Shown here one piece after another: positions 3 to 15,907 of a DNA stretch of 64,000 nucleotides. A program made the translations under genes and the position numbers. Each line of letters begins with the position of its first letter. Position 1 is the stretch's first letter. The notes beneath the pieces were generated by a model. The model worked only from the letters and a program-made list of their open reading frames with translations. It was not told the origin of the DNA and did not search any database. Source of the stretch: a virus; UHGV virus genome UHGV-0033546. One strand, written 5' to 3'.

Positions 3-614
3 GTATGGCAAGACATCATGGGAGTTAACATGATGGACTATGATATGATGATAAATCAAGAACCATATCCAATGATTGTAGGTGAGCCAACTTTAATAGG
101 TCAATTCGTCCAAGAATTAAAATATCCATTAGCATATGATTTTGTTTGGTTGACTAAATCAAACCCGCATAAACGTGATCCAATGAAAAATGCTACTATC
201 TATGCTCATTCATTTTTAGATTCTTCATTACCAATGATTACTACAGGAAAGGGTGAAAACTCTATTGTAGTGTCAAGGTCAGGTGCTTATTCTGAAATGA
301 CTTATAGAAATGGATATGAAGAAGCTATTCGTCTTCAGACTATGGCGCAGTATGATGGTTACGCTAAATGTTCTACTGTCGGTAATTTTAACTTGACTCC
401 TGGCGTTAAAATTATTTTTAATGATAGTAAAAACCAATTTAAAACAGAATTTTACGTTGATGAAGTTATTCACGAATTATCAAATAATAATTCCGTAACT
501 CATCTTTATATGTTCACTAATGCAACGAAACTGGAAACAATCGACCCAGTTAAGGTTAAAAATGAATTTAAAACTGATACTACCACTGAAGAAAGTAGTT
601 CTTCCGATAAGTAA
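3..614 (+). CDS. 27: baseplate hub subunit gp27, C-terminal part (start lies outside window)
   Basis: ORF open to window edge, ends TAA 612-614, overlaps downstream gp28 start; assigned by synteny with 28-29-48-54. Confidence 0.6.
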
Positions 615-5282: not shown

Positions 5283-5312
5283 ATTATAACACAACACGAG
5301 GGACTTGTAAAC
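5283..5312 (-). promoter_or_regulatory. T4-type early promoter (GTTTAC -35, 18 bp, TATAAT -10)
   Basis: - strand GTTTAC at 5312-5307 and TATAAT at 5288-5283; module near-identical to the one upstream of alc. Confidence 0.5.
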
Positions 5313-7369
5313 TACATCTTGAACTTTTTAGACATTCCGTTGATGTTAACCAAAGAAGCCAATATTTGAGAAACTTCGTTTTCCTCTTCTTTTGATTCTT
5401 CTACAAGGAATTGATTAAACCCAGCCATTGGACGAACTTCACCAGTTTCCATTAGATGATCGCCATCATATACTGATTCTTCTAATTGTTCAGAAGGAGG
5501 AACGATTGTGCCTTCGATTAGATACTTATTATAAGCAGTTTCTTTCGTCATGTACGTACTTACTTTATTAATCTTCAGTAAAATTCCACGTGGCAAAATA
5601 ACTTCAGCTTCGGATGGAAATCCTGATAAATGACCTGGAACGATAACTTTAACTCGTTCAGCTCCTTTAATTACCATACCTACATTAGTTTCAGCGTCTT
5701 CATTCGCATATGTAGAATGACTACCCATATGCATTAAATCTTCGGCATCAACTGAACCTTCTCCTTCGCCAGAAAATACTGCTCCGGAATCATCTAAGGC
5801 CATATAATTTTTACCATACTCACCAAAGATATTTGGTTTAAGTGATGTCGATACGAAGTTCTTGAAATAGAACATTTTATTTTCAATGTTATGACGCAAA
5901 GTTTTAAAGGTAACTTCTTGCCCGCGATAAAGAGTAGTTCCTGGAGGAAGAACTGAACCTTTAGTAAATGCAGAATCTAACGCTTCGATGTTCTTAATAG
6001 CACGTTCCATATATTCTTCACGGGTGGAATCTGGTTTACCTAAAAGGAACGAGTTCATTTCAACATATGAATCTGCACAATACTCTTCAATTACATCAGA
6101 CTCAGCCTGAGTTAATCCTTTTGGAGTTACTTCAGTGCTTGCATATTCATACGCCTGAGCAGCGGATTCATCAATCAATTTATAAATTCCATTCATTACA
6201 AATTGAATAATAGCTGTCTTTTCATCTGGTGTAGCTTTAGAACCTTTAACTAAATCATTGATAATTTTCTTAATAACATCAAAGCTATTAGAAATATTAA
6301 TATCAGCAAGATCGCTTAAAATTTTATCAGCTTTATAATTAAAAAATTCTTTATTCTTTGAATATTCCTGAGAACCTTGATATGATATATCGCTCTGCAA
6401 CTTGATAGATGGATCACGTAAACGTGCATGAGCCAATGCAATATGATTTCTGAAGCTTTCTAATTCATAATCGCTAGATTTAAAACGAGAAGCACTTCTC
6501 ATACCACCGATAGCTCCTTTGCTGAAGTTTGAACCAACTTGAATAACACCAGAGTTCATCGGTCCTTCTGCTTTATATACCGGAACTTTAGATTCAAACT
6601 CTTGATATTTCTTGGCAGCGAAGCTATCACCCTGAAGTGAAGCATCAACAGTAGAATATTGAGCTTGTGCTGCTAATCGACGACTAATTTTAGTTTTTTG
6701 AATAACAGCTTGATCCGTACGCTTATCATTTTCTAAAGCAATAGAAGCAGCAACAGCAACAGCTTTAGGAACAGCATTGCCTGTTTTAACGTCTACATAA
6801 ACATCACCGACCTTTGATTCAACTTTTGTGAATAGCTCTGTTGAAATAGGAGGTACACCTGGAATGTCTTCTAAGTTAGCATTTTTACGGTAAACCATAA
6901 TATATGCATACTTTTTATCATAATCCCAGATTTCCTTTAAAAGAACGTATCGACCTGCTCCTTTAGTACGTACTAAACGGTCAGCAATAACTTGCAATTG
7001 ACGAGCTGCGCCATTTGTTTTACTCTTTAGTACGCGGAATAAGCATGCATCAATTTTATACTGTTTCATTGTTTGAAGAGCAGTATCAAAAACCGCATTA
7101 ATGACACCAATTGGATTTCCACCTAAGTTTTTAAGTTTAACTAATGATAGTTTCTCATTAACACCTATCATTACGACATGCATCATTTTATCGCCTGGCT
7201 TAACGTTTTTATTTGTATCACCACCAGAGGTGTATGTACAAAATCTAAATCCAGGAAGCACGCTTTCTTCACCGGCTTGAATAGCAAAAATTTGAGGTAT
7301 TTTATGCTTAGGATTTAAGTTAACAACCGGCGCCGAAGCGCCGTCAAATAATTCTGTAATAAGTTCCAT
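5312..7369 (-). CDS. Alt-like ADP-ribosyltransferase paralog (internal head protein family)
   Basis: 685-aa ORF; N-terminal ~250 aa closely parallel the upstream Alt (MELITELFD..., CTYTSGGDTN, KIDAC, GRYVLLKE, DYDKKYAYI), C-terminal half diverged; AAGGAT RBS. Confidence 0.75.
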   Translation of the reverse strand: MELITELFDGASAPVVNLNPKHKIPQIFAIQAGEESVLPGFRFCTYTSGGDTNKNVKPGDKMMHVVMIGVNEKLSLVKLKNLGGNPIGVINAVFDTALQTMKQYKIDACLFRVLKSKTNGAARQLQVIADRLVRTKGAGRYVLLKEIWDYDKKYAYIMVYRKNANLEDIPGVPPISTELFTKVESKVGDVYVDVKTGNAVPKAVAVAASIALENDKRTDQAVIQKTKISRRLAAQAQYSTVDASLQGDSFAAKKYQEFESKVPVYKAEGPMNSGVIQVGSNFSKGAIGGMRSASRFKSSDYELESFRNHIALAHARLRDPSIKLQSDISYQGSQEYSKNKEFFNYKADKILSDLADINISNSFDVIKKIINDLVKGSKATPDEKTAIIQFVMNGIYKLIDESAAQAYEYASTEVTPKGLTQAESDVIEEYCADSYVEMNSFLLGKPDSTREEYMERAIKNIEALDSAFTKGSVLPPGTTLYRGQEVTFKTLRHNIENKMFYFKNFVSTSLKPNIFGEYGKNYMALDDSGAVFSGEGEGSVDAEDLMHMGSHSTYANEDAETNVGMVIKGAERVKVIVPGHLSGFPSEAEVILPRGILLKINKVSTYMTKETAYNKYLIEGTIVPPSEQLEESVYDGDHLMETGEVRPMAGFNQFLVEESKEEENEVSQILASLVNINGMSKKFKM

Positions 7370-7372
7370 GAT

Positions 7373-9466
7373 TTATCCTTGAACGAACTTGTAAGGCATG
7401 TTTGTAATATCTATGCAAGACGCAATAATTCCAAGAGATGATTCTACTTTTTGTTTAACATTTGATGAAACAAATGATGCAAAGTCAACTCTGTTTTCTG
7501 TTTCAATATCACCTGTCATTGCAACTACTTCGCCGGTTTCCATTAAACGGTCTCCGTCATAGATTACCGATTCGGTGAGTTCTTCCGTAGTCATAACTTC
7601 AGCTTGAATGAGTTTTGTATTATTAGATGTTGTTCCGTCATTATTAGAAGCATCAGTTATTTTATTAACTTTGACCATCAATCCGCGCGGTAGAATAACT
7701 TCAGCTTCTGTTGCTATTCCGAGACTTCCTGGATATACAACATTAACTTTATGAGCTCCATCAATTGCCCATCCTATTTGAACTTTAACGTATTCAGGAT
7801 TTTCTTTATACGCTCTTATTTCATTTGGATTAATAGTTATTCCTTCTTCATTTTTATCAACTGTTAATTCATTACGAGCTTCTGGTTCTAAAAGACCAAT
7901 ACCAGCATGTGTAATTCCAAAACGTCCAAAAATGATAGGAGTTAAAGAAGTAGATACAAAATTTCTGAAATAGAACACTTTATTTTTAACTAGTGCTTCG
8001 TATATAGGAGCAGTCATACTTTGAGCACGATAAACTGTGATGCCTTCCGGTATACGGTCACCATTTTCAAAAGCTGAATCTAAGTTATTTATAGCAGATT
8101 CAATTTCTTTTTCACTCATTACATCATATCGTTCTGGATTGTAACGACCTAAAAGAAGATTATTGATGTCAGTATATCCTGAACCGCAATATTCTCTAAT
8201 GCCACGCTTTTGTAATGGAGTATATTTAGAACCATCGCGGGCAATAGTAATATCAATCATTGAACCAGCACCAATTCCAGAAAAACTGTAAATCATTCGT
8301 TTGAGGAATTTAGTTTTTGCTGCGTTCCAGGAATTTTTAGTTATTTCTTCCCAGACTTCATCTGGTTGTCCTTTACGGGTTTTATTATGACTAGCAAGCC
8401 ATTTATCTTTATAATCTTCAAAGAATTTATTAACAGCTGCTGCGTATTTCTCTAAACATTTTATTGAAGTAGTTGGTTCATTTTTAATCGCGTTAAAAAT
8501 TACATCTTTAATTTTTTCTGAAACTTCACCGACTTGACTCATTGGAAAGAATTTATAGTCATAGTGAAGTTCATCTGCAGTTCCTTCAGCAATAATTTTT
8601 GCTGCCTTAGTTTTAGAAGCCAATGAATTAATTCCAAGTTTCATTTCTTCTGCTTCGGGAATTAAAGGAGCGGTGGCAGGTTTATTGAAATTAGCTGCGG
8701 TAGATTCATACTTCTGGAATAATTCACTTTCAAATCTAGAAGATTCTAATGATTGACTTTGCGCAATTGCTCTACGGGAAATTTTAACTTTAACGATTAC
8801 AGCTTGGTCAGAACGTTTATCGTTTTCTTGCGCAATAGATGCTGCAATTGCCTCATTTTTAGTTACTTGAGCTCCGGTATCTTTATTGATATAAACATCA
8901 CCGACCTTCGATTCAACTTTAGTAAAGAGCTCGGTACTAATTTCCGGAACTCCTGGAATGTCTTCTAGTGATACATTTTTGCGATGTATAAGAATATATG
9001 CATACTTTTTATCGTAATCCCAGAGTTCCTTAAGAAGGACGTATCTGCCACCTGAGCGACTACGGATAAGTCTATCAGCAATAAGTTGAATTTGTCGAGC
9101 TTGGCCAGCGGTTTTAGACTTAAGAATACGGAGCATGCAGGCATCAATTTTATATTGACGCATTGTTTGCATTGCAACAGTAAAAACTGAATTGATATAA
9201 TTAATTGGGCTTGGACCAAGACCTTTTAGTTTAGCAATTGAACCTTTAGCAGTTAATGTAAAAGGAACAATATGCATCATTTTATCGCCCATTTTTAAAT
9301 CACGGTTAGTATCACCTCCGGATGTATAGGTACATAAACGAAAGCCTGGTTGTTCAATTGCATCATCAACATGAACTGAAAAAATTTGCGGTATTTTCTT
9401 CTTTGGATTTAAGTTTGTAATCGGAAGAGTAGTATCTTCGTCAAATAATTCTGTAATAAGTTCCAT
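7373..9466 (-). CDS. alt: Alt ADP-ribosyltransferase (packaged internal protein)
   Basis: 697/698-aa ORF starting MELITELFDEDTTLPITNL as recalled for T4 Alt; late promoter upstream; tandem ATG, second has better RBS spacing. Confidence 0.85.
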   Translation of the reverse strand: MELITELFDEDTTLPITNLNPKKKIPQIFSVHVDDAIEQPGFRLCTYTSGGDTNRDLKMGDKMMHIVPFTLTAKGSIAKLKGLGPSPINYINSVFTVAMQTMRQYKIDACMLRILKSKTAGQARQIQLIADRLIRSRSGGRYVLLKELWDYDKKYAYILIHRKNVSLEDIPGVPEISTELFTKVESKVGDVYINKDTGAQVTKNEAIAASIAQENDKRSDQAVIVKVKISRRAIAQSQSLESSRFESELFQKYESTAANFNKPATAPLIPEAEEMKLGINSLASKTKAAKIIAEGTADELHYDYKFFPMSQVGEVSEKIKDVIFNAIKNEPTTSIKCLEKYAAAVNKFFEDYKDKWLASHNKTRKGQPDEVWEEITKNSWNAAKTKFLKRMIYSFSGIGAGSMIDITIARDGSKYTPLQKRGIREYCGSGYTDINNLLLGRYNPERYDVMSEKEIESAINNLDSAFENGDRIPEGITVYRAQSMTAPIYEALVKNKVFYFRNFVSTSLTPIIFGRFGITHAGIGLLEPEARNELTVDKNEEGITINPNEIRAYKENPEYVKVQIGWAIDGAHKVNVVYPGSLGIATEAEVILPRGLMVKVNKITDASNNDGTTSNNTKLIQAEVMTTEELTESVIYDGDRLMETGEVVAMTGDIETENRVDFASFVSSNVKQKVESSLGIIASCIDITNMPYKFVQG

Positions 9467-9489
9467 CATATCCTCTCTAGTGTTTATTC

Positions 9490-9520: not shown

Positions 9521-9707
9521 AATAATCTAATGGTAAGAGAGTACGGTATATTTCAAACTTTGGACCTTTTTCATAGGCATCAAATGTTTCTGTAAATTTA
9601 TTATAAGCGTATGCATCTACAAATTCAAGCATGATTTGTGATACAGAAGTAGAAACATCTCCGCCTTCTTTTTGAGCTACAACAATTGTTTCTAAGTAAG
9701 CTTTCAT
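9519..9707 (-). CDS. hypothetical protein (62 aa) downstream of ligase
   Basis: ATG overlaps ligase stop (ATGA), implying translational coupling. Confidence 0.5.
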   Translation of the reverse strand: MKAYLETIVVAQKEGGDVSTSVSQIMLEFVDAYAYNKFTETFDAYEKGPKFEIYRTLLPLDY

Positions 9708-11167
9708 AGACCAGTTACCTCATGAAAATCACCAAATACATCCTCGAATGTATTAGCTTTAGTTTTATCTTCACGCAAACGAATCGCAATTGGAAGAAAT
9801 AATTTAACGTAATCAGCGCGACCATCAGATTTTAACCAACCGTTGCATTCGCACTCTAGAATTTTTCCAATATAATAATTTTGGTTTTCCATGATGCGAG
9901 TACGGTCAAGTTCGTGTGATTTTACACCGGCTTTATCTTTTAAGCCTGAACCAGCATTTACTTTAATTTTTCCACACTCTGACTCGAGAATAAATCCACC
10001 CGCTTTAGTAGGGTCTTTACGGTGAGGATAAATTCCTACAATTTTTAAATCAACATCAATTACTTCTTTAAATTTATAGAGATTTTTTGAACGAGCATTT
10101 TCCCATAACCCATCGACGTTTTTGAGAATAATACCTTCAAGACCTTGGTCAATATATTTTTTATAAATTACCTTGGCTTCGTCTAAATTATTTACTACCT
10201 GGTTTTCAATTAAAATTACTTTGTCATATCCTGATGTCATTTGTTCTAATTTAGAAAAACGTACATCATACTTCAAACGAAATGCTGGAAGACCGTATAT
10301 TTCTACCAACGGAACATAATCCCATACCTGAAACTTCATGCATTGAGCTTCTTTTTCAGAAATGGTTCCTTTTAAGGATTTATTGGCGATTCCATTAGAA
10401 GTAGTACGAGATTCCGCTACTTCAGCGAATTCTTTAGCTTTACTAATTTCAGGATAAGCATCAAAAAGAAAATCTAGGCCTTCTGGTTCCTTTTTAACTT
10501 GCTCATGGTATACCAATTCGCCATCAATTAACACACCTTCTGGATGAATCTGGCGGGCTTCAGCGGTCATTTTGATTAACTCTTCTTTAAGAAAATCTAA
10601 TCCTAGATATTCATTACCAGCTCGTGATAAAAGACGAACATCGTCTAATTCATCACCTCTGATTTCAGCAAAACACCGAGCTCCATCTGCTTTTAACTGT
10701 GCAAAGGCTGGAAATTTGATATTCTTATTAATGCCTTTTTCGTCATAAGAACTTGCAAGCATTTGAGGTTGTTCAGGAATTAAACCTGGCCAGACTTTGT
10801 TTGCAATAGATACAGAAGCACCACATTCAAGGTCTCGCATCATCACTCGACGCAAAACTTCAACATCATCTTTTTTACCGTCAGTAATATAACCAATTAA
10901 TTCTTCAATTGCCGCATTTCCGGTTAATTTCCGAGTAGCTAACGTGAATTCAATAAAATCAAGCATATCGGTAATAGTCAACATTCCAAAACTCTGGGTG
11001 GCAATGCCGGGTTTAGGCCATTTTTTGATATAATACTGCAACCCGCGAGAATAAGTTAGACGATATACTCGTTTAAGCAATTCATTATCTTTATTCTTTT
11101 CAAGAATTGCCTGCTTCTGCTTAGTTGAACCAATAGATGCTATTTCATTCAGAATTTTAAGAATCAT
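9704..11167 (-). CDS. 30: ATP-dependent DNA ligase
   Basis: 487-aa ORF; sequence matches T4 DNA ligase as recalled, incl. adenylation motif KADGARCF. Confidence 0.95.
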   Translation of the reverse strand: MILKILNEIASIGSTKQKQAILEKNKDNELLKRVYRLTYSRGLQYYIKKWPKPGIATQSFGMLTITDMLDFIEFTLATRKLTGNAAIEELIGYITDGKKDDVEVLRRVMMRDLECGASVSIANKVWPGLIPEQPQMLASSYDEKGINKNIKFPAFAQLKADGARCFAEIRGDELDDVRLLSRAGNEYLGLDFLKEELIKMTAEARQIHPEGVLIDGELVYHEQVKKEPEGLDFLFDAYPEISKAKEFAEVAESRTTSNGIANKSLKGTISEKEAQCMKFQVWDYVPLVEIYGLPAFRLKYDVRFSKLEQMTSGYDKVILIENQVVNNLDEAKVIYKKYIDQGLEGIILKNVDGLWENARSKNLYKFKEVIDVDLKIVGIYPHRKDPTKAGGFILESECGKIKVNAGSGLKDKAGVKSHELDRTRIMENQNYYIGKILECECNGWLKSDGRADYVKLFLPIAIRLREDKTKANTFEDVFGDFHEVTGL

Positions 11168-11433
11168 TATTCATCCTTCAGAGTTTGGTTTACAGCTCTA
11201 TTATAAATCAATTCATCATTAAGCTCAGTCAAAGACCTATGATATGTAGTTCTAACTTTATTTCCTTGCATCCAGTGCTTGATATAAATGAAACCTTGCT
11301 CTACACATTTTTTAAAAATTCGTTCGTCTTTTTGAGCTCGGAATTCTGGATTGCATCTAAAAAATTGATTTACGTGACCGTAATCACGTGTAGTATTACC
11401 TTCATTTTCATAAATAGTATGAACAACAAACAT
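11167..11433 (-). CDS. hypothetical protein (88 aa)
   Basis: ATG start; TAATG overlap with upstream ORF. Confidence 0.5.
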   Translation of the reverse strand: MFVVHTIYENEGNTTRDYGHVNQFFRCNPEFRAQKDERIFKKCVEQGFIYIKHWMQGNKVRTTYHRSLTELNDELIYNRAVNQTLKDE

Positions 11434-12275
11434 TAGAATGCTCCTTGGAAAATATTATCAGCACTAGTAGGTCTATTATACAAATACTCTATGCCACCAG
11501 GTTTAATATAGTTCCATGTATGAAATGGATGCACATGATATGGATGTGTATAATATGGATGGTATGGATTTAATCCAGGAGTTCTCCAGGTAGTATTCCA
11601 ACGAAAAGAATCGTTTTTAATCATCTTCTCAATTACATCTTTTATTGCTTTTTCACTATCAAAACTTTCTTTATTTTCCTTTGGTGAAAAAAGCTTATTT
11701 TCTATATCATTCCATGTATAAACTCGCTGAGCAGTTTTTGGAATATTGTCACGCTCTCCTCGAGTCATCCAATAAACAGGAACATTTAATATTTCACTCG
11801 CATGATCACAATGATGAGCGAGATCGTCAATATAACAAATTACATTATATTTCTCTTTTGCCTTTTTGAACAACTCTTCTTTTGAAGAATCATGTCCACA
11901 CATCATTACTTCTGAGAAGGCACCAGGAAAAAGAGCATTCAAATTAAATTGACGATTTAACAGAGCATCAATAGAATCACCCAGTGCTGTAACAGCAACA
12001 AAATTATAATCTTCTTTTAATTTGTTAATTACACACAGGGCATCTTTGTACGGAGACAAGTAACGAATAAAATCTGATCGATTGTATTTTTCAATTAACT
12101 TGACGCCAAGTTCTTCATCGCAATTAAAAAGTTTACCTGGAGAAATAAATTTCTCATCTTGGATCATTTTTAAAATATGTTCTAACGGAAGATTATATTT
12201 CTGAGCAAAATAAGGAAGGCCCGATTGCCAGCTTAAACATACTCCATCAATATCAGTTAAAATAGTAGGCTTCAT
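11433..12275 (-). CDS. HAD-superfamily hydrolase-like protein (possible 5-prime nucleotidase) with His/aromatic-rich C-terminal tail
   Basis: 280 aa; N-terminal LTDIDGV resembles HAD motif I (DxDGx), later YIDD resembles motif IV; tail PYHPYYTHPYHVHPFHTW. Confidence 0.55.
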   Translation of the reverse strand: MKPTILTDIDGVCLSWQSGLPYFAQKYNLPLEHILKMIQDEKFISPGKLFNCDEELGVKLIEKYNRSDFIRYLSPYKDALCVINKLKEDYNFVAVTALGDSIDALLNRQFNLNALFPGAFSEVMMCGHDSSKEELFKKAKEKYNVICYIDDLAHHCDHASEILNVPVYWMTRGERDNIPKTAQRVYTWNDIENKLFSPKENKESFDSEKAIKDVIEKMIKNDSFRWNTTWRTPGLNPYHPYYTHPYHVHPFHTWNYIKPGGIEYLYNRPTSADNIFQGAF

Positions 12276-12730
12276 AGAGAGTCTCTTAATAGGTTTAACA
12301 CATCAATAAATTCAGCTTCGGTTAGTATTGTATCATCTTTTGTTAGACCACTAGCCATGCTATGCTTCAAAACTTTTCCTTTCGAGGCTTGTAATGCATC
12401 GCGAAAGCCCCTGTTTTGGAACGCTGCTTCAAAATATGCATTTGTGTATAATTCTTTCCACGCTGGAGAGTATCTTGAAAACGGAGTTCCAAGCCAGAAG
12501 AGGGTCCCACGGTCCTGAGCTCTAGCATAAGACCTTCCAGCTTGTTGGGCGGCAAGCCCGGATAACCCAAATATACGACGTTGCTGTTCAACATTTTTCA
12601 CCTTGCAACCTTGGAGGAATCCTTCGAGACCTCCAAATTGAATGCCATCCATAATGAAAGGCCATTGGGCGAAATTACTTAATGCGCATGATGGCCATCT
12701 AAAATTGCTTCTAATCTCTAACTCAGACAT
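12272..12730 (-). CDS. NADAR / YbiA-like (DUF1768-like) protein
   Basis: 152 aa from first ATG (track start is TTG); segment LSNFAQWPFIMDGIQFGGLEGFLQGCKV resembles the YbiA motif FSNFAAWPIKVDGKTWPTSEHYFQAQKF, recalled from memory. Confidence 0.5.
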   Translation of the reverse strand: MSELEIRSNFRWPSCALSNFAQWPFIMDGIQFGGLEGFLQGCKVKNVEQQRRIFGLSGLAAQQAGRSYARAQDRGTLFWLGTPFSRYSPAWKELYTNAYFEAAFQNRGFRDALQASKGKVLKHSMASGLTKDDTILTEAEFIDVLNLLRDSL

Positions 12731-12929
12731 TTTCAATACTTATAATTTCAACATCAGCCCAATGACCATAGCAAGGAAGACGAAATTCAACTGGCCAATC
12801 ACTACCTTTTTCTAGTATAATAGACTTAACTTGTGGTTCTTCATGTTCATCAGTATATGGATTTTTATCTGTTACTTTATATGTGACCTTAATGTACTGA
12901 ATTCCAAAAATCTTATTAATTATATTCAT
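12723..12929 (-). CDS. hypothetical protein (68 aa)
   Basis: ATG start; packed between neighbours. Confidence 0.45.
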   Translation of the reverse strand: MNIINKIFGIQYIKVTYKVTDKNPYTDEHEEPQVKSIILEKGSDWPVEFRLPCYGHWADVEIISIENV

Positions 12930-13123
12930 ACTAATTCCTTTAATCCGTAAATAGGAGATAATTCATCACCCATACGAAGGTCTTCATTTCCATCTACCCA
13001 GGAAACAATATAAGCCTCCTTTATTTGAATACCACTCCATTTAAATGGAGGTAGAACCTTAGAAATTAATCCAGGTATACCGACTCCCTTTAATTCAACA
13101 GTTTGACCTAAAAAGAATTTCAT
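12926..13123 (-). CDS. hypothetical protein (65 aa)
   Basis: ATG start; overlaps neighbours by 4 nt. Confidence 0.45.
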   Translation of the reverse strand: MKFFLGQTVELKGVGIPGLISKVLPPFKWSGIQIKEAYIVSWVDGNEDLRMGDELSPIYGLKELV

Positions 13124-13410
13124 TAGAACCTCATCTGAAAGCCATGTGATTTAACATTACCACCATCAATATCAGAAATATTGATTTCACACGCAATTGA
13201 AGGATCAATGTCAATTTCACGATTAAGTTTAGCGATAGCTAAAGTATCGCGCCCATTTACGGTACGGAATTCTAAAGGACAAACCAAATTAACGTAGTTC
13301 TTAATCGATTCGCGGGTAGGTTGCAAATGAGCAGGAAGGTCTTTAGGCGCCTTAGAGAAAACCACTTCACAGAAATTTTTGCGAGTATCAAAATAAGTAG
13401 TCATAAACAT
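13123..13410 (-). CDS. hypothetical protein (95 aa)
   Basis: ATG with GAGGAAA RBS. Confidence 0.5.
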   Translation of the reverse strand: MFMTTYFDTRKNFCEVVFSKAPKDLPAHLQPTRESIKNYVNLVCPLEFRTVNGRDTLAIAKLNREIDIDPSIACEINISDIDGGNVKSHGFQMRF

Positions 13411-13451
13411 AGTATTTTCCTCAGTAAGGGGCCGAAGCCCCTCATTTCATT

Positions 13452-13817
13452 TTAAATATCAAATTCGTTAAGAACTACATCAAAGATTGCTTCAAGATGC
13501 TCAGGTTTAGCTCTGTTACTCAGAATATGACGAATCCAAGTTTTAACTAAGAGTTTACGATTAACACCATTCCAGCAAGGATGAGTCCCTAAATCGCGTT
13601 GACGAAAATCATCATCCAGAGCGATTTTGAAGTTTGAACCTTCCATTGTGATTGAAACCGTGATGCCATTTTCAAATCGCATATAAACGTAGTTAGGAGT
13701 CATATACTGTTCAATTTCGCATACTGATCCATTTTGATGTTTCCAAAGGCAGATGGTATCAATAGAACCTGCAATACCATTAGAAACATATTTACGTTCG
13801 AAGTTGATGTAGTTCAT
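13452..13817 (-). CDS. hypothetical protein (121 aa)
   Basis: ATG with GGAGA RBS; early promoter upstream. Confidence 0.5.
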   Translation of the reverse strand: MNYINFERKYVSNGIAGSIDTICLWKHQNGSVCEIEQYMTPNYVYMRFENGITVSITMEGSNFKIALDDDFRQRDLGTHPCWNGVNRKLLVKTWIRHILSNRAKPEHLEAIFDVVLNEFDI

Positions 13818-13853
13818 TTTATTCTCCAGGATGTTTAATTGCGGTACAGGTAT

Positions 13854-13882
13854 ATAATATCATGTCCTGTACCAAAGTAAAC
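13854..13882 (-). promoter_or_regulatory. T4-type early promoter
   Basis: - strand GTTTAC (13882-13877), 17-bp spacer, TATTAT (13859-13854); -10 bracketed by 8-bp inverted repeat GGTACAGG/CCTGTACC (13843-13873). Confidence 0.45.
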
Positions 13883-13886
13883 TGTT

Positions 13887-14255
13887 TTATGCAACTTTAA
13901 TCCAATTATCTAAATTTAAAACACCTTTGGCTTTCATTTTTTCGATCAGGTTATCTGCGGTAATGCGTCCATTTTGATACCATGTAACATCTTCAGCGTA
14001 ATCAGTTTCTTCGTCAACGTATGTTTCTGAACGAATTTTACCTGTGATAATAGTTTTTAATTCGTATGTGTCGCCTGTGAAAAAGTTAGTTAACATGATT
14101 TTCCAAGAGAAATCATCAGAAGGACCCTCAGGAGTCATGCAACCTACAAATTCAAATTGTTCTTTATATAAATGCCACTGAAGTTCTTTAGTTTCGATAG
14201 CTTTATAGCCGTCGTGATCTTTACCTTTGATGTATGAGTTAAGATTGATTTTCAT
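13887..14255 (-). CDS. hypothetical protein (122 aa)
   Basis: ATG with AGGAGA RBS. Confidence 0.5.
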   Translation of the reverse strand: MKINLNSYIKGKDHDGYKAIETKELQWHLYKEQFEFVGCMTPEGPSDDFSWKIMLTNFFTGDTYELKTIITGKIRSETYVDEETDYAEDVTWYQNGRITADNLIEKMKAKGVLNLDNWIKVA

Positions 14256-14282
14256 TTTATTCTCCTTTGTTTGTGTAAGATA

Positions 14283-14312
14283 ATACTATCACAAAGGAAC
14301 TATACTGTAAAC
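14283..14312 (-). promoter_or_regulatory. T4-type early promoter
   Basis: - strand GTTTAC at 14312-14307 with TAGTAT/ATAGTA 17-18 bp downstream. Confidence 0.4.
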
Positions 14313-14327
14313 AACTTTGTGCAATCT

Positions 14328-14361
14328 TTGGAAAATAAAAAAGGACTCCCGAAGGAGTCCT
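14328..14361 (-). terminator. rho-independent terminator
   Basis: hairpin AGGACTCC-CGAA-GGAGTCCT (14342-14361) followed on - strand by TTTTTTATTTT. Confidence 0.55.
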
Positions 14362-14365
14362 CAAC

Positions 14366-14542
14366 TTATGCTTTCTGCTTACCAAAACGAGAAGCATCAT
14401 CTCGAAGAACCGCACGTGCTCGGCGCATGATCTTCTCAACAGTTTGATTGATACGAGAGTTCGACCCACGCTTGTAACCAGCGCGTTTAGAATCACCAAT
14501 TTTCTTTTCAACTGCTTTCTTTGCTTTAGCTTGTTTTGCCAT
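14366..14542 (-). CDS. small basic protein (58 aa; T4 30.9-like position)
   Basis: first ATG at 14542 (track ORF extends upstream); MAKQAKAKKAVEKK..., very lysine/arginine rich. Confidence 0.5.
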   Translation of the reverse strand: MAKQAKAKKAVEKKIGDSKRAGYKRGSNSRINQTVEKIMRRARAVLRDDASRFGKQKA

Positions 14543-14831
14543 TATAAATTCTCTTTTAAATGAAAATGCAGGACTTATTGGCATTGCCTGCGCAAGCCCT
14601 CAAGGGGGTACTTAGGTTTTGAATATTTACCGACAGGATAACCATAAACCTCGTCATCATACCACCAAGACTTACACAGATAACACTTTTCTGACGCATG
14701 ATAGTAACATTCAAGAGGTACACCATAAAACTGCCGGGGTCTTAAAACTATAATGATTCGCAAATCATCAATCAGACAGTTCGATGGCTCCTCGATTTTA
14801 GCTCACACTAAGGCAGTGAATCTCCAATAAA

Positions 14832-15080
14832 TTACTTCAATGTTACCACAAAGTGACGAACTGCTTTTCGTGCGGCAGAAGCCAGAGGCTTAGCATATTT
14901 AAGCTCATCTTTTTCCTGAAGCTCAGCAGCTAATGCAGTTTGTGCAGGATTCAGATGTTTGAAATAACGCAGGATTTCAAGAGCTTCGGCTTCAACATCA
15001 ATAGATGCGCCATAGTTTTCGTGACCATTATTCCATGCGTTTCGTTGCAGTTCAAGAGCGTGTTGTAATTGTTTAATCAT
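14832..15080 (-). CDS. rIII: lysis-inhibition accessory protein rIII
   Basis: 82-aa ORF, same length and map position (just downstream of gene 31) as T4 rIII. Confidence 0.75.
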   Translation of the reverse strand: MIKQLQHALELQRNAWNNGHENYGASIDVEAEALEILRYFKHLNPAQTALAAELQEKDELKYAKPLASAARKAVRHFVVTLK

Positions 15081-15198
15081 TTAAAAATTCTCGTTAGAGA
15101 TTAAAACTCGGTAGTCACGTTCTTCTGAATTTCATCTTCTTTCGACAGATCTCTCAGTTGTAGACTACCACATAGAATTGAAACTCAATTCATATTAT

Positions 15199-15206
15199 TA
15201 TTTATA
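15199..15206 (-). promoter_or_regulatory. late promoter TATAAATA
   Basis: + strand tatttata at 15199-15206, immediately after gene 31 stop and upstream of rIII. Confidence 0.4.
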
Positions 15207-15542
15207 TCACTTATAAAGACATGGAATAGCTTTATAGTGACAGGTAACGAATTTTTGTTTAATTTCTTTTGGCTGCTTAAGACCCAGAGCTACAAAAGGA
15301 TGCGGAACGTTTCGAATTTGACCAACTGGAAGAGAAGTCAAATCACCAACTTCACAGAAACCTTCAGGAACATCAGGACCAACAGAGTGAACTACACACA
15401 GTTCAGGAACTTCACCTTGAACACGTTTACCGATAATAAGTCCTGATTCTGTAACTTCTTCATCACCGGCTTGTGCAGGTTCAGAAACTAAAATCACATA
15501 TTCACCGACAGCACGAATTGGTAGCTGTTGTACTTCAGACAT
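15207..15542 (-). CDS. 31: co-chaperonin GroES-like gp31
   Basis: 111-aa ORF, same length and position as T4 gp31. Confidence 0.85.
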
Positions 15543-15572
15543 CGTTTTTCCTTTTTGTTAGCAGATGAATTA

Positions 15573-15597
15573 ATAATAACAAATAATTCTTAAAGCA
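15573..15597 (-). promoter_or_regulatory. MotA-dependent middle promoter (MotA box TGCTTTA + -10 TATTAT)
   Basis: - strand aaTGCTTTA at 15597-15591, 12-bp spacer, TATTAT at 15578-15573, upstream of gene 31. Confidence 0.45.
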
Positions 15598-15598
15598 T

Positions 15599-15907
15599 TT
15601 ATTTACCAATAAATTGAAGCAAATGCTCAACTTTCATACCATTAACGGAAATCAATTTGTCAATAGAAAAACCTCGCCATGCGCCAAGCTCAACATCAAA
15701 TACTGGAATCATATCAGTAGATTCTTTCCGAGCAGATTCAGTCAATTTACCAGTTTGCATGGTTGGCATAAAGTCCGCATCACGAGTGCCTTTCATAGTA
15801 CGAATAGTACCATCAGACTTTTCAAAAACTACGTTTGAAATACCCATGGACAATTTAGTTTTCAAAATTTCACGAATTGCTACTTTCTGTTCAGTTGTCA
15901 GTTTCAT
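15599..15907 (-). CDS. hypothetical protein (102 aa)
   Basis: ATG start, compact arrangement. Confidence 0.5.
   Translation of the reverse strand: MKLTTEQKVAIREILKTKLSMGISNVVFEKSDGTIRTMKGTRDADFMPTMQTGKLTESARKESTDMIPVFDVELGAWRGFSIDKLISVNGMKVEHLLQFIGK

Follow-up and report, generated by a model that had tools for sequence, protein, structure and literature searches.

The 64,000-nucleotide window analyzed here, from UHGV virus genome UHGV-0033546, carries an open reading frame (ORF) that, by sequence identity and gene order, is the ortholog of T4 gene 30.3, now named adfN (anti-DarT factor NADAR). We consider it highly probable (roughly 93%) that this gene encodes an orphan phage-type NADAR that would remove ADP-ribose from DarT1-modified guanines of phage DNA and so counter DarTG1. 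An original prediction, made from the letters of the sequence, had proposed a NADAR/YbiA-like, ADP-ribose-processing anti-DarT protein at this locus; its observation and its interpretation are both right, and are supported by 97% identity to T4 AdfN together with a predicted NADAR fold. The gene is a rediscovery, already characterized, and the feature is not new because its fold, chemistry and counter-defense role were published in 2023-2025. In what follows, activity and phenotype come from the published T4 and T2 proteins, and identity, synteny, fold, residues and full length come from the present analysis.

The product aligned without gaps to T4 gp30.3 (NC_000866), with 147 of 152 residues identical (97%), and identity to the T2 allele was also 97%. 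Five substitutions separate it from T4 (V26I, V82T, I104F, K107R and I125M). Methionine at position 125 is common to T2 and Mosigvirus ST0, and the remaining four, which are absent from T4, T2 and ST0, are conservative changes at family-variable positions. At the nucleotide level, 12 of the 19 differences from T4 in adfN were synonymous, and the 2.5 kb surrounding the ORF were ~95-96% identical to many Tequatrovirus genomes. The protein matched PF08010 (Phage_30_3, 'Bacteriophage protein GP30.3') over the entire profile (E = 8e-69; 230.2 bits, cutoff 36; positions 1-138 of 138), as well as PHROG 652, whose function is unassigned. The ORFs also stand in the order found in T4 (ligase, 30.1, 30.2, 30.3, 30.4, 30.5, 30.6, 30.7, 30.8, rIII, 31), where the names from 30.8 onward were assigned by ORF position and size and not by sequence comparison. 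This synteny bears out the placement of the ORF in the gene 30 to 31 cluster. The description of the gene as next to ligase is loose because 30.1 and 30.2 separate 30.3 from gene 30, and the DNA-repair role drawn from the ligase neighbor found no specific support.

The predicted ORF was confirmed on the minus strand, where it runs for 152 residues from the ATG at 12730 to a TGA stop at 12274..12272. The ORF caller had placed the start at a TTG at 12736 (154 residues); the ATG lies two codons inward and corresponds to the annotated start of T4 30.3. At this end the ATG overlaps the end of 30.4 by 8 nucleotides (nt), an arrangement that suggests translational coupling, and no obvious Shine-Dalgarno sequence for 30.3 was seen at the overlap. 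In T2 (NC_054931.1), the annotated 30.4 just upstream of adfN (locus positions 157..243) is only 87 nt long, compared with 207 nt here and in T4, so that conservation of the junction does not extend to T2. T2 AdfN is functional despite this short annotated 30.4 (PMC11825919). At the other end, the 4-nt ATGA overlap between the 30.3 stop and the 30.2 start is found in T4 and T2 as well.

The function of AdfN has been established in T-even phages. Work with T2xRB69 and T4xRB69 chimeras traced DarTG1 resistance to gene 30.3, which was renamed accordingly (Johannesman et al., Nat Commun 2025, PMC11825919). Upon deletion of adfN, neither T4 nor T2 formed plaques on DarTG1 hosts (PMC11825919), which means that the knockout plaque assay proposed with the original prediction is already in print for both phages. 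Ectopic AdfN restored RB69 on DarTG1 hosts, and the 30.3 gene of RB69 carries a frameshift that shortens the protein by 15 residues (PMC11825919). AdfN is not a binding partner of DarT1; ADP-ribose is stripped from DarT1-modified DNA by the purified enzyme but not by its E36A variant, and rescue is weakened alike by E36A, K43A and an RB69-like truncation (PMC11825919). The T4 NADAR hydrolyzes guanosine-ADP-ribose on DNA and RNA, but not cytidine-ADP-ribose (PMC11125620, PMC12945103), and in a transposon screen insertions in 30.3/adfN were lost specifically on DarTG1 hosts (10.1101/2025.11.20.689424). The thymine-modifying DarTG2 is not countered by AdfN (PMC11825919), and T4 counters it through tk.4, or AdfM (10.1101/2025.11.20.689424).

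Homology to known NADAR proteins became visible with family profiles. When 1.8 billion representative proteins were searched with a profile, 1449 relatives came up, and family alignments of 10 and 60 members were used. In an hmmsearch against PDB sequences, the 60-member profile ranked E. coli YbiA (2b3w) first (E = 0.0014), over the motif region flagged in the original prediction, and 11 of the 60 members gave weak PF08719 matches of their own (best E = 1.1e-4). Comparison of the family profile with E. coli K-12 YbiA by hhalign gave a probability of 95.1% (E = 3e-8; 107 columns), and pairwise BLASTP, run as a single comparison, aligned residues 18-70 with YbiA 30-83 (19/56 identical; E = 1e-5). 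The family profile, hhalign and BLASTP all pair the motif region with YbiA 27-81, and the resemblance to YbiA proposed originally is thus beyond chance. The quoted motif itself was located at residues 17-44 (window 12682..12599). A single-sequence phmmer search of PDB sequences found nothing relevant, its best match being an unrelated ATP pyrophosphatase (E = 1.3). An AlphaFold2 model built from the 10-sequence alignment (predicted local distance difference test score, pLDDT, 90.8; predicted template modeling score 0.86) reproduced the NADAR assignment in a fold search and displayed the NADAR alpha+beta fold, and Foldseek agreed on the same three top-ranked structures. By this profile-profile and fold evidence, and not by a direct Pfam match, the protein as modeled is a member of the NADAR superfamily.

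The putative active site would consist of Glu36, Lys43 and His123. Glu36 was invariant in both alignments, Lys43 was conserved in at least 90% of the 60 sequences, and His123 was invariant among the 10 and conserved in at least 90% of the 60. His123 falls within a predicted strand (residues 120-123 of the AlphaFold2 model) and lies opposite YbiA Glu125 if the hhalign register is extended; in the MAFFT alignment its partner is instead the next YbiA residue, His126. At this last-strand position phage NADARs have His, YbiA-type proteins Glu and DarG1-type proteins Asp (PMC11543638, PMC11125620, PMC12945103). In T4 AdfN, E36A abolishes in vitro activity and K43A rescues only partially (PMC11825919). 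The model also contains a C-terminal helix at residues 138-151 (block mean pLDDT ~89-96), and residues 126-152 are identical to T4.

We propose that adfN would be transcribed with the minus-strand gene 31-to-30 cluster. When the host DarT1 toxin puts ADP-ribose on guanine bases of phage DNA, AdfN would cleave the N-glycosidic bond and release ADP-ribose from the guanine, and, with the adducts gone, phage DNA replication could continue in DarTG1 cells. In acting on the product of the toxin and not on the toxin, AdfN would be akin to a type IV antitoxin. A scan for sigma-70 promoters and terminators across 11000..15800 found sites no more numerous than in shuffled sequence, and is therefore uninformative on expression.

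Some results weigh against this assignment. A single-sequence Pfam scan gave no match to PF08719 (NADAR/DUF1768) even at E ≤ 1, so that the check suggested originally came back blank in its plain form and gave the NADAR link only through profile-profile and fold comparison. PADLOC likewise had no match for 30.3 or the neighboring protein. The family placement therefore rests on remote homology, fold and orthology. On the functional side, T4 AdfN gives only poor rescue of T5 and Bas25 and does not neutralize DarT1 when E. coli is uninfected (PMC11825919, PMC11543638), and the picture of an enzyme that suffices by itself is therefore incomplete.

Countering DarTG1 could be one facet of an enzyme whose main substrate is something other than DarT1-modified DNA, be it guanosine-ADP-ribosylated RNA, soluble ADP-ribose immune signals or the products of the phage's own ADP-ribosyltransferases (ARTs); we regard this as unlikely. 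The T4 NADAR does take guanosine-linked ADP-ribose off RNA in vitro, although less actively than the E. coli C7 NADAR, which is associated with DarT1 (PMC12945103), and Iyer et al. used contextual evidence to argue for phage NADARs as early genes, co-expressed with ARTs, with a possible preference for soluble derivatives of ADP-ribose. A broader substrate range may exist as an additional function, but the sole known in vivo phenotype is lost plating on DarTG1. Two Alt-type ART genes do lie 2.8-7.4 kb downstream of 30.3 (5312..9469). Alt, ModA and ModB modify protein arginine residues, though, and NADAR enzymes are not known to act on the arginine linkage that they make. Moreover, no rule of gene neighborhood joins 30.3 to alt beyond some T4-like genera, and the Aeromonas homolog is located elsewhere.

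Weak AdfN rescue outside T-even phages is independent of DNA modification, and an unknown T-even partner has been suggested (PMC11825919). If full in vivo activity of AdfN needs such a T-even-encoded partner, the coupled downstream gene 30.2 is a candidate, albeit an improbable one. Its product is a 5'(3')-deoxyribonucleotidase-like HAD-superfamily phosphatase in which the invariant DxD, Lys and DD motifs are all intact, and its C-terminal tail is disordered, with many His, Pro and Tyr residues. This phosphatase might act on the ADP-ribose once it is released or on the damaged site, or might assist in bringing AdfN to phage DNA. The two genes have a similar distribution (30.2 in 1440 phage records, 30.3 in 1511) and adjoin each other in T4, T2, ST0 and Acinetobacter phage Stupor. 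In Klebsiella phage KP17, however, they are ~56 kb apart, no 30.2 homolog was found within 4 kb of 30.3 in Aeromonas phage 60AhydR15PP, and 30.2 is not named with the DarTG1 results in the HIDEN-SEQ text (10.1101/2025.11.20.689424). Linkage between 30.2 and 30.3 is therefore weak, which is why we rate the partner idea low.

An allele inactivated or weakened like that of RB69, through V26I, V82T, I104F and K107R, is very improbable. Natural loss-of-function alleles exist, both as the RB69 frameshift and as numerous database homologs whose ORFs are cut short or fused (86-126 residues). The ORF examined here, by contrast, is full length, retains its C-terminal helix and all catalytic residues, and differs from T4 by mostly synonymous nucleotide changes and by the conservative substitutions described above. 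We infer that the allele would behave as T4 and T2 AdfN in spite of the four substitutions private to it. Finally, a housekeeping role like that of YbiA, as an N-glycosidase for reactive intermediates of the riboflavin pathway, is effectively refuted by published genetics, in which the phage could do without the gene on E. coli K-12 and needed it only with DarTG1 (10.1101/2025.11.20.689424). In addition, phage NADARs cluster apart from the YbiA group (PMC11825919), His123 stands in the place of the YbiA-type Glu, and TIGR02464 (NCBIfam) gave a sub-threshold score of 12.3 bits (E = 0.15) against a cutoff of 73.7 bits. The last two points also limit the term 'YbiA-like', which is correct for the superfamily but not for the YbiA type.

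Variation among 30.3 genes extends beyond the RB69 allele. Several Tequatrovirus-like homologs have shortened or fused 30.3 ORFs (P0007, P0012-P0016, P0019, P0022), and in some records the fusions are to 30.7/30.8-type domains (PF06919, PF06019) or to PF11097. Such ORFs suggest that deletions and frameshifts may recur in the 30.3 cluster and that DarTG1-sensitive variants like RB69 may arise naturally. Matches spanning only residues 1-144 were considered as further truncated alleles and rejected; the one checked, Mosigvirus ST0, has the full 152 residues and an identical C-terminus. The alternative-frame ORF 30.3' that is annotated within 30.3 of T4 is 89% identical to its T4 counterpart (67/75 residues), compared with 97% for 30.3. 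The overlap contains 10 nucleotide differences; 8 of them are nonsynonymous when read in the 30.3' frame and 5 when read in the 30.3 frame, and from these small numbers there was no sign of constraint on 30.3'.

Coordinates of these and neighboring features are collected in the table. The tandem full-length Alt-type genes are 42% identical to each other. The 698-residue gene is the ortholog of T4 Alt (70% identical, with divergence in the middle and ART regions), and the 685-residue paralog stands where T4 has only alt.-1/-2/-3 remnants. Copies of this paralog at least 95% identical occur in ~396 phage records, and the tandem arrangement is therefore common. Two G+C-rich hairpins in the 31-to-30 cluster may serve as intrinsic terminators or as RNA-stability elements; the terminator count over 11000..15800 was not above shuffled expectation.

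Table. Positions in the window of adfN, its predicted functional residues, and other features of the region.
Feature	Position	Strand	Details and basis
adfN (gene 30.3) coding sequence, predicted phage-type NADAR ADP-ribosylglycohydrolase	12272..12730	minus	152 residues plus stop
Motif LSNFAQWPFIMDGIQFGGLEGFLQGCKV (LSNF...EGFLQGCKV), residues 17-44	12599..12682	minus	Best-conserved NADAR core segment; holds Glu36 and Lys43
Glu36 (GAA), putatively catalytic	12623..12625	minus	Read from sequence; aligns with YbiA Glu48 (hhalign)
Lys43 (AAG), putatively ADP-ribose-contacting	12602..12604	minus	Read from sequence; aligns with YbiA Lys55 (hhalign)
His123 (CAT), phage-NADAR signature in last strand	12362..12364	minus	Read from sequence
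C-terminal alpha-helix, residues 138-152	12275..12319	minus	Model and sequence; lost in RB69 frameshift allele, intact here
Overlap of 30.4 end and 30.3 ATG, ATGTCTGA	12723..12730	minus	8 nt; sequence and ORF table; same in T4
ATGA overlap of 30.3 stop and 30.2 start	12272..12275	minus	Sequence and ORF table
30.3', alternative-frame ORF within 30.3	12367..12594	minus	Open here, 75 residues; as annotated in T4
30.2, HAD-phosphatase gene, downstream of 30.3	11433..12275	minus	ORF table
30.1/DUF3045	11167..11433		ORF table
DNA ligase, gene 30	9704..11167		ORF table
Alt-type ART gene	7373..9469	minus	698 residues; PF03496 match
Alt-type ART gene	5312..7369	minus	685 residues; PF03496 match
Palindrome AGGGGCCGAAGCCCCT, G+C-rich hairpin	13427..13442		Between 30.7 and 30.6
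G+C-rich hairpin GAGGACTCCTTCGGGAGTCCTT, then T-run	14341..14362	minus (coding)	Apparently between ORFs at 30.9 and 30.8 positions

Nearly all phage records among the matches listed label the gene 'hypothetical protein', and a standard Pfam scan yields 'Bacteriophage protein GP30.3' alone; annotation pipelines therefore keep missing the anti-DarTG1 role. Because the allele is full length and has E36, K43 and H123, the phage is predicted to resist DarTG1-type defense, a prediction that is useful in choosing therapeutic T4-like phages.

Compared with known NADAR proteins, gp30.3 differs from the Phytophthora nicotianae NADAR (8bau, an ADP-ribose complex), a eukaryotic protein of 19% identity, which has Glu125 instead of His at the last-strand position. 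E. coli YbiA (2b3w), at ~20% identity, likewise has Glu125 where His123 stands here; it is a housekeeping N-glycosidase for riboflavin intermediates that also removes cytidine-linked ADP-ribose, which the T4 NADAR does not. In contrast to the DarG1/BC4488-type antitoxins (G. lovleyi NADAR, 8bat; E. coli C7 NADAR), 30.3 is an orphan with no adjoining DarT gene, its neighbors being 30.4 and the HAD-type 30.2, and it has His in place of their catalytic Asp. The DarG1-type proteins also have N-terminal nucleic-acid-binding additions that form a DNA-binding channel, whereas 30.3 comprises only a 152-residue core (PMC12945103), and the fold alignment to 8bat covers 132 of its 219 residues. In uninfected cells the T4 protein is no replacement for DarG1 (PMC11825919, PMC11543638). 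From T4 AdfN itself the present allele, known from its sequence, differs by five substitutions, and it shares with that protein the length of 152 residues, the position between 30.2 and 30.4 with overlapping starts and stops, E36, K43 and H123, the C-terminal helix and the predicted NADAR fold.
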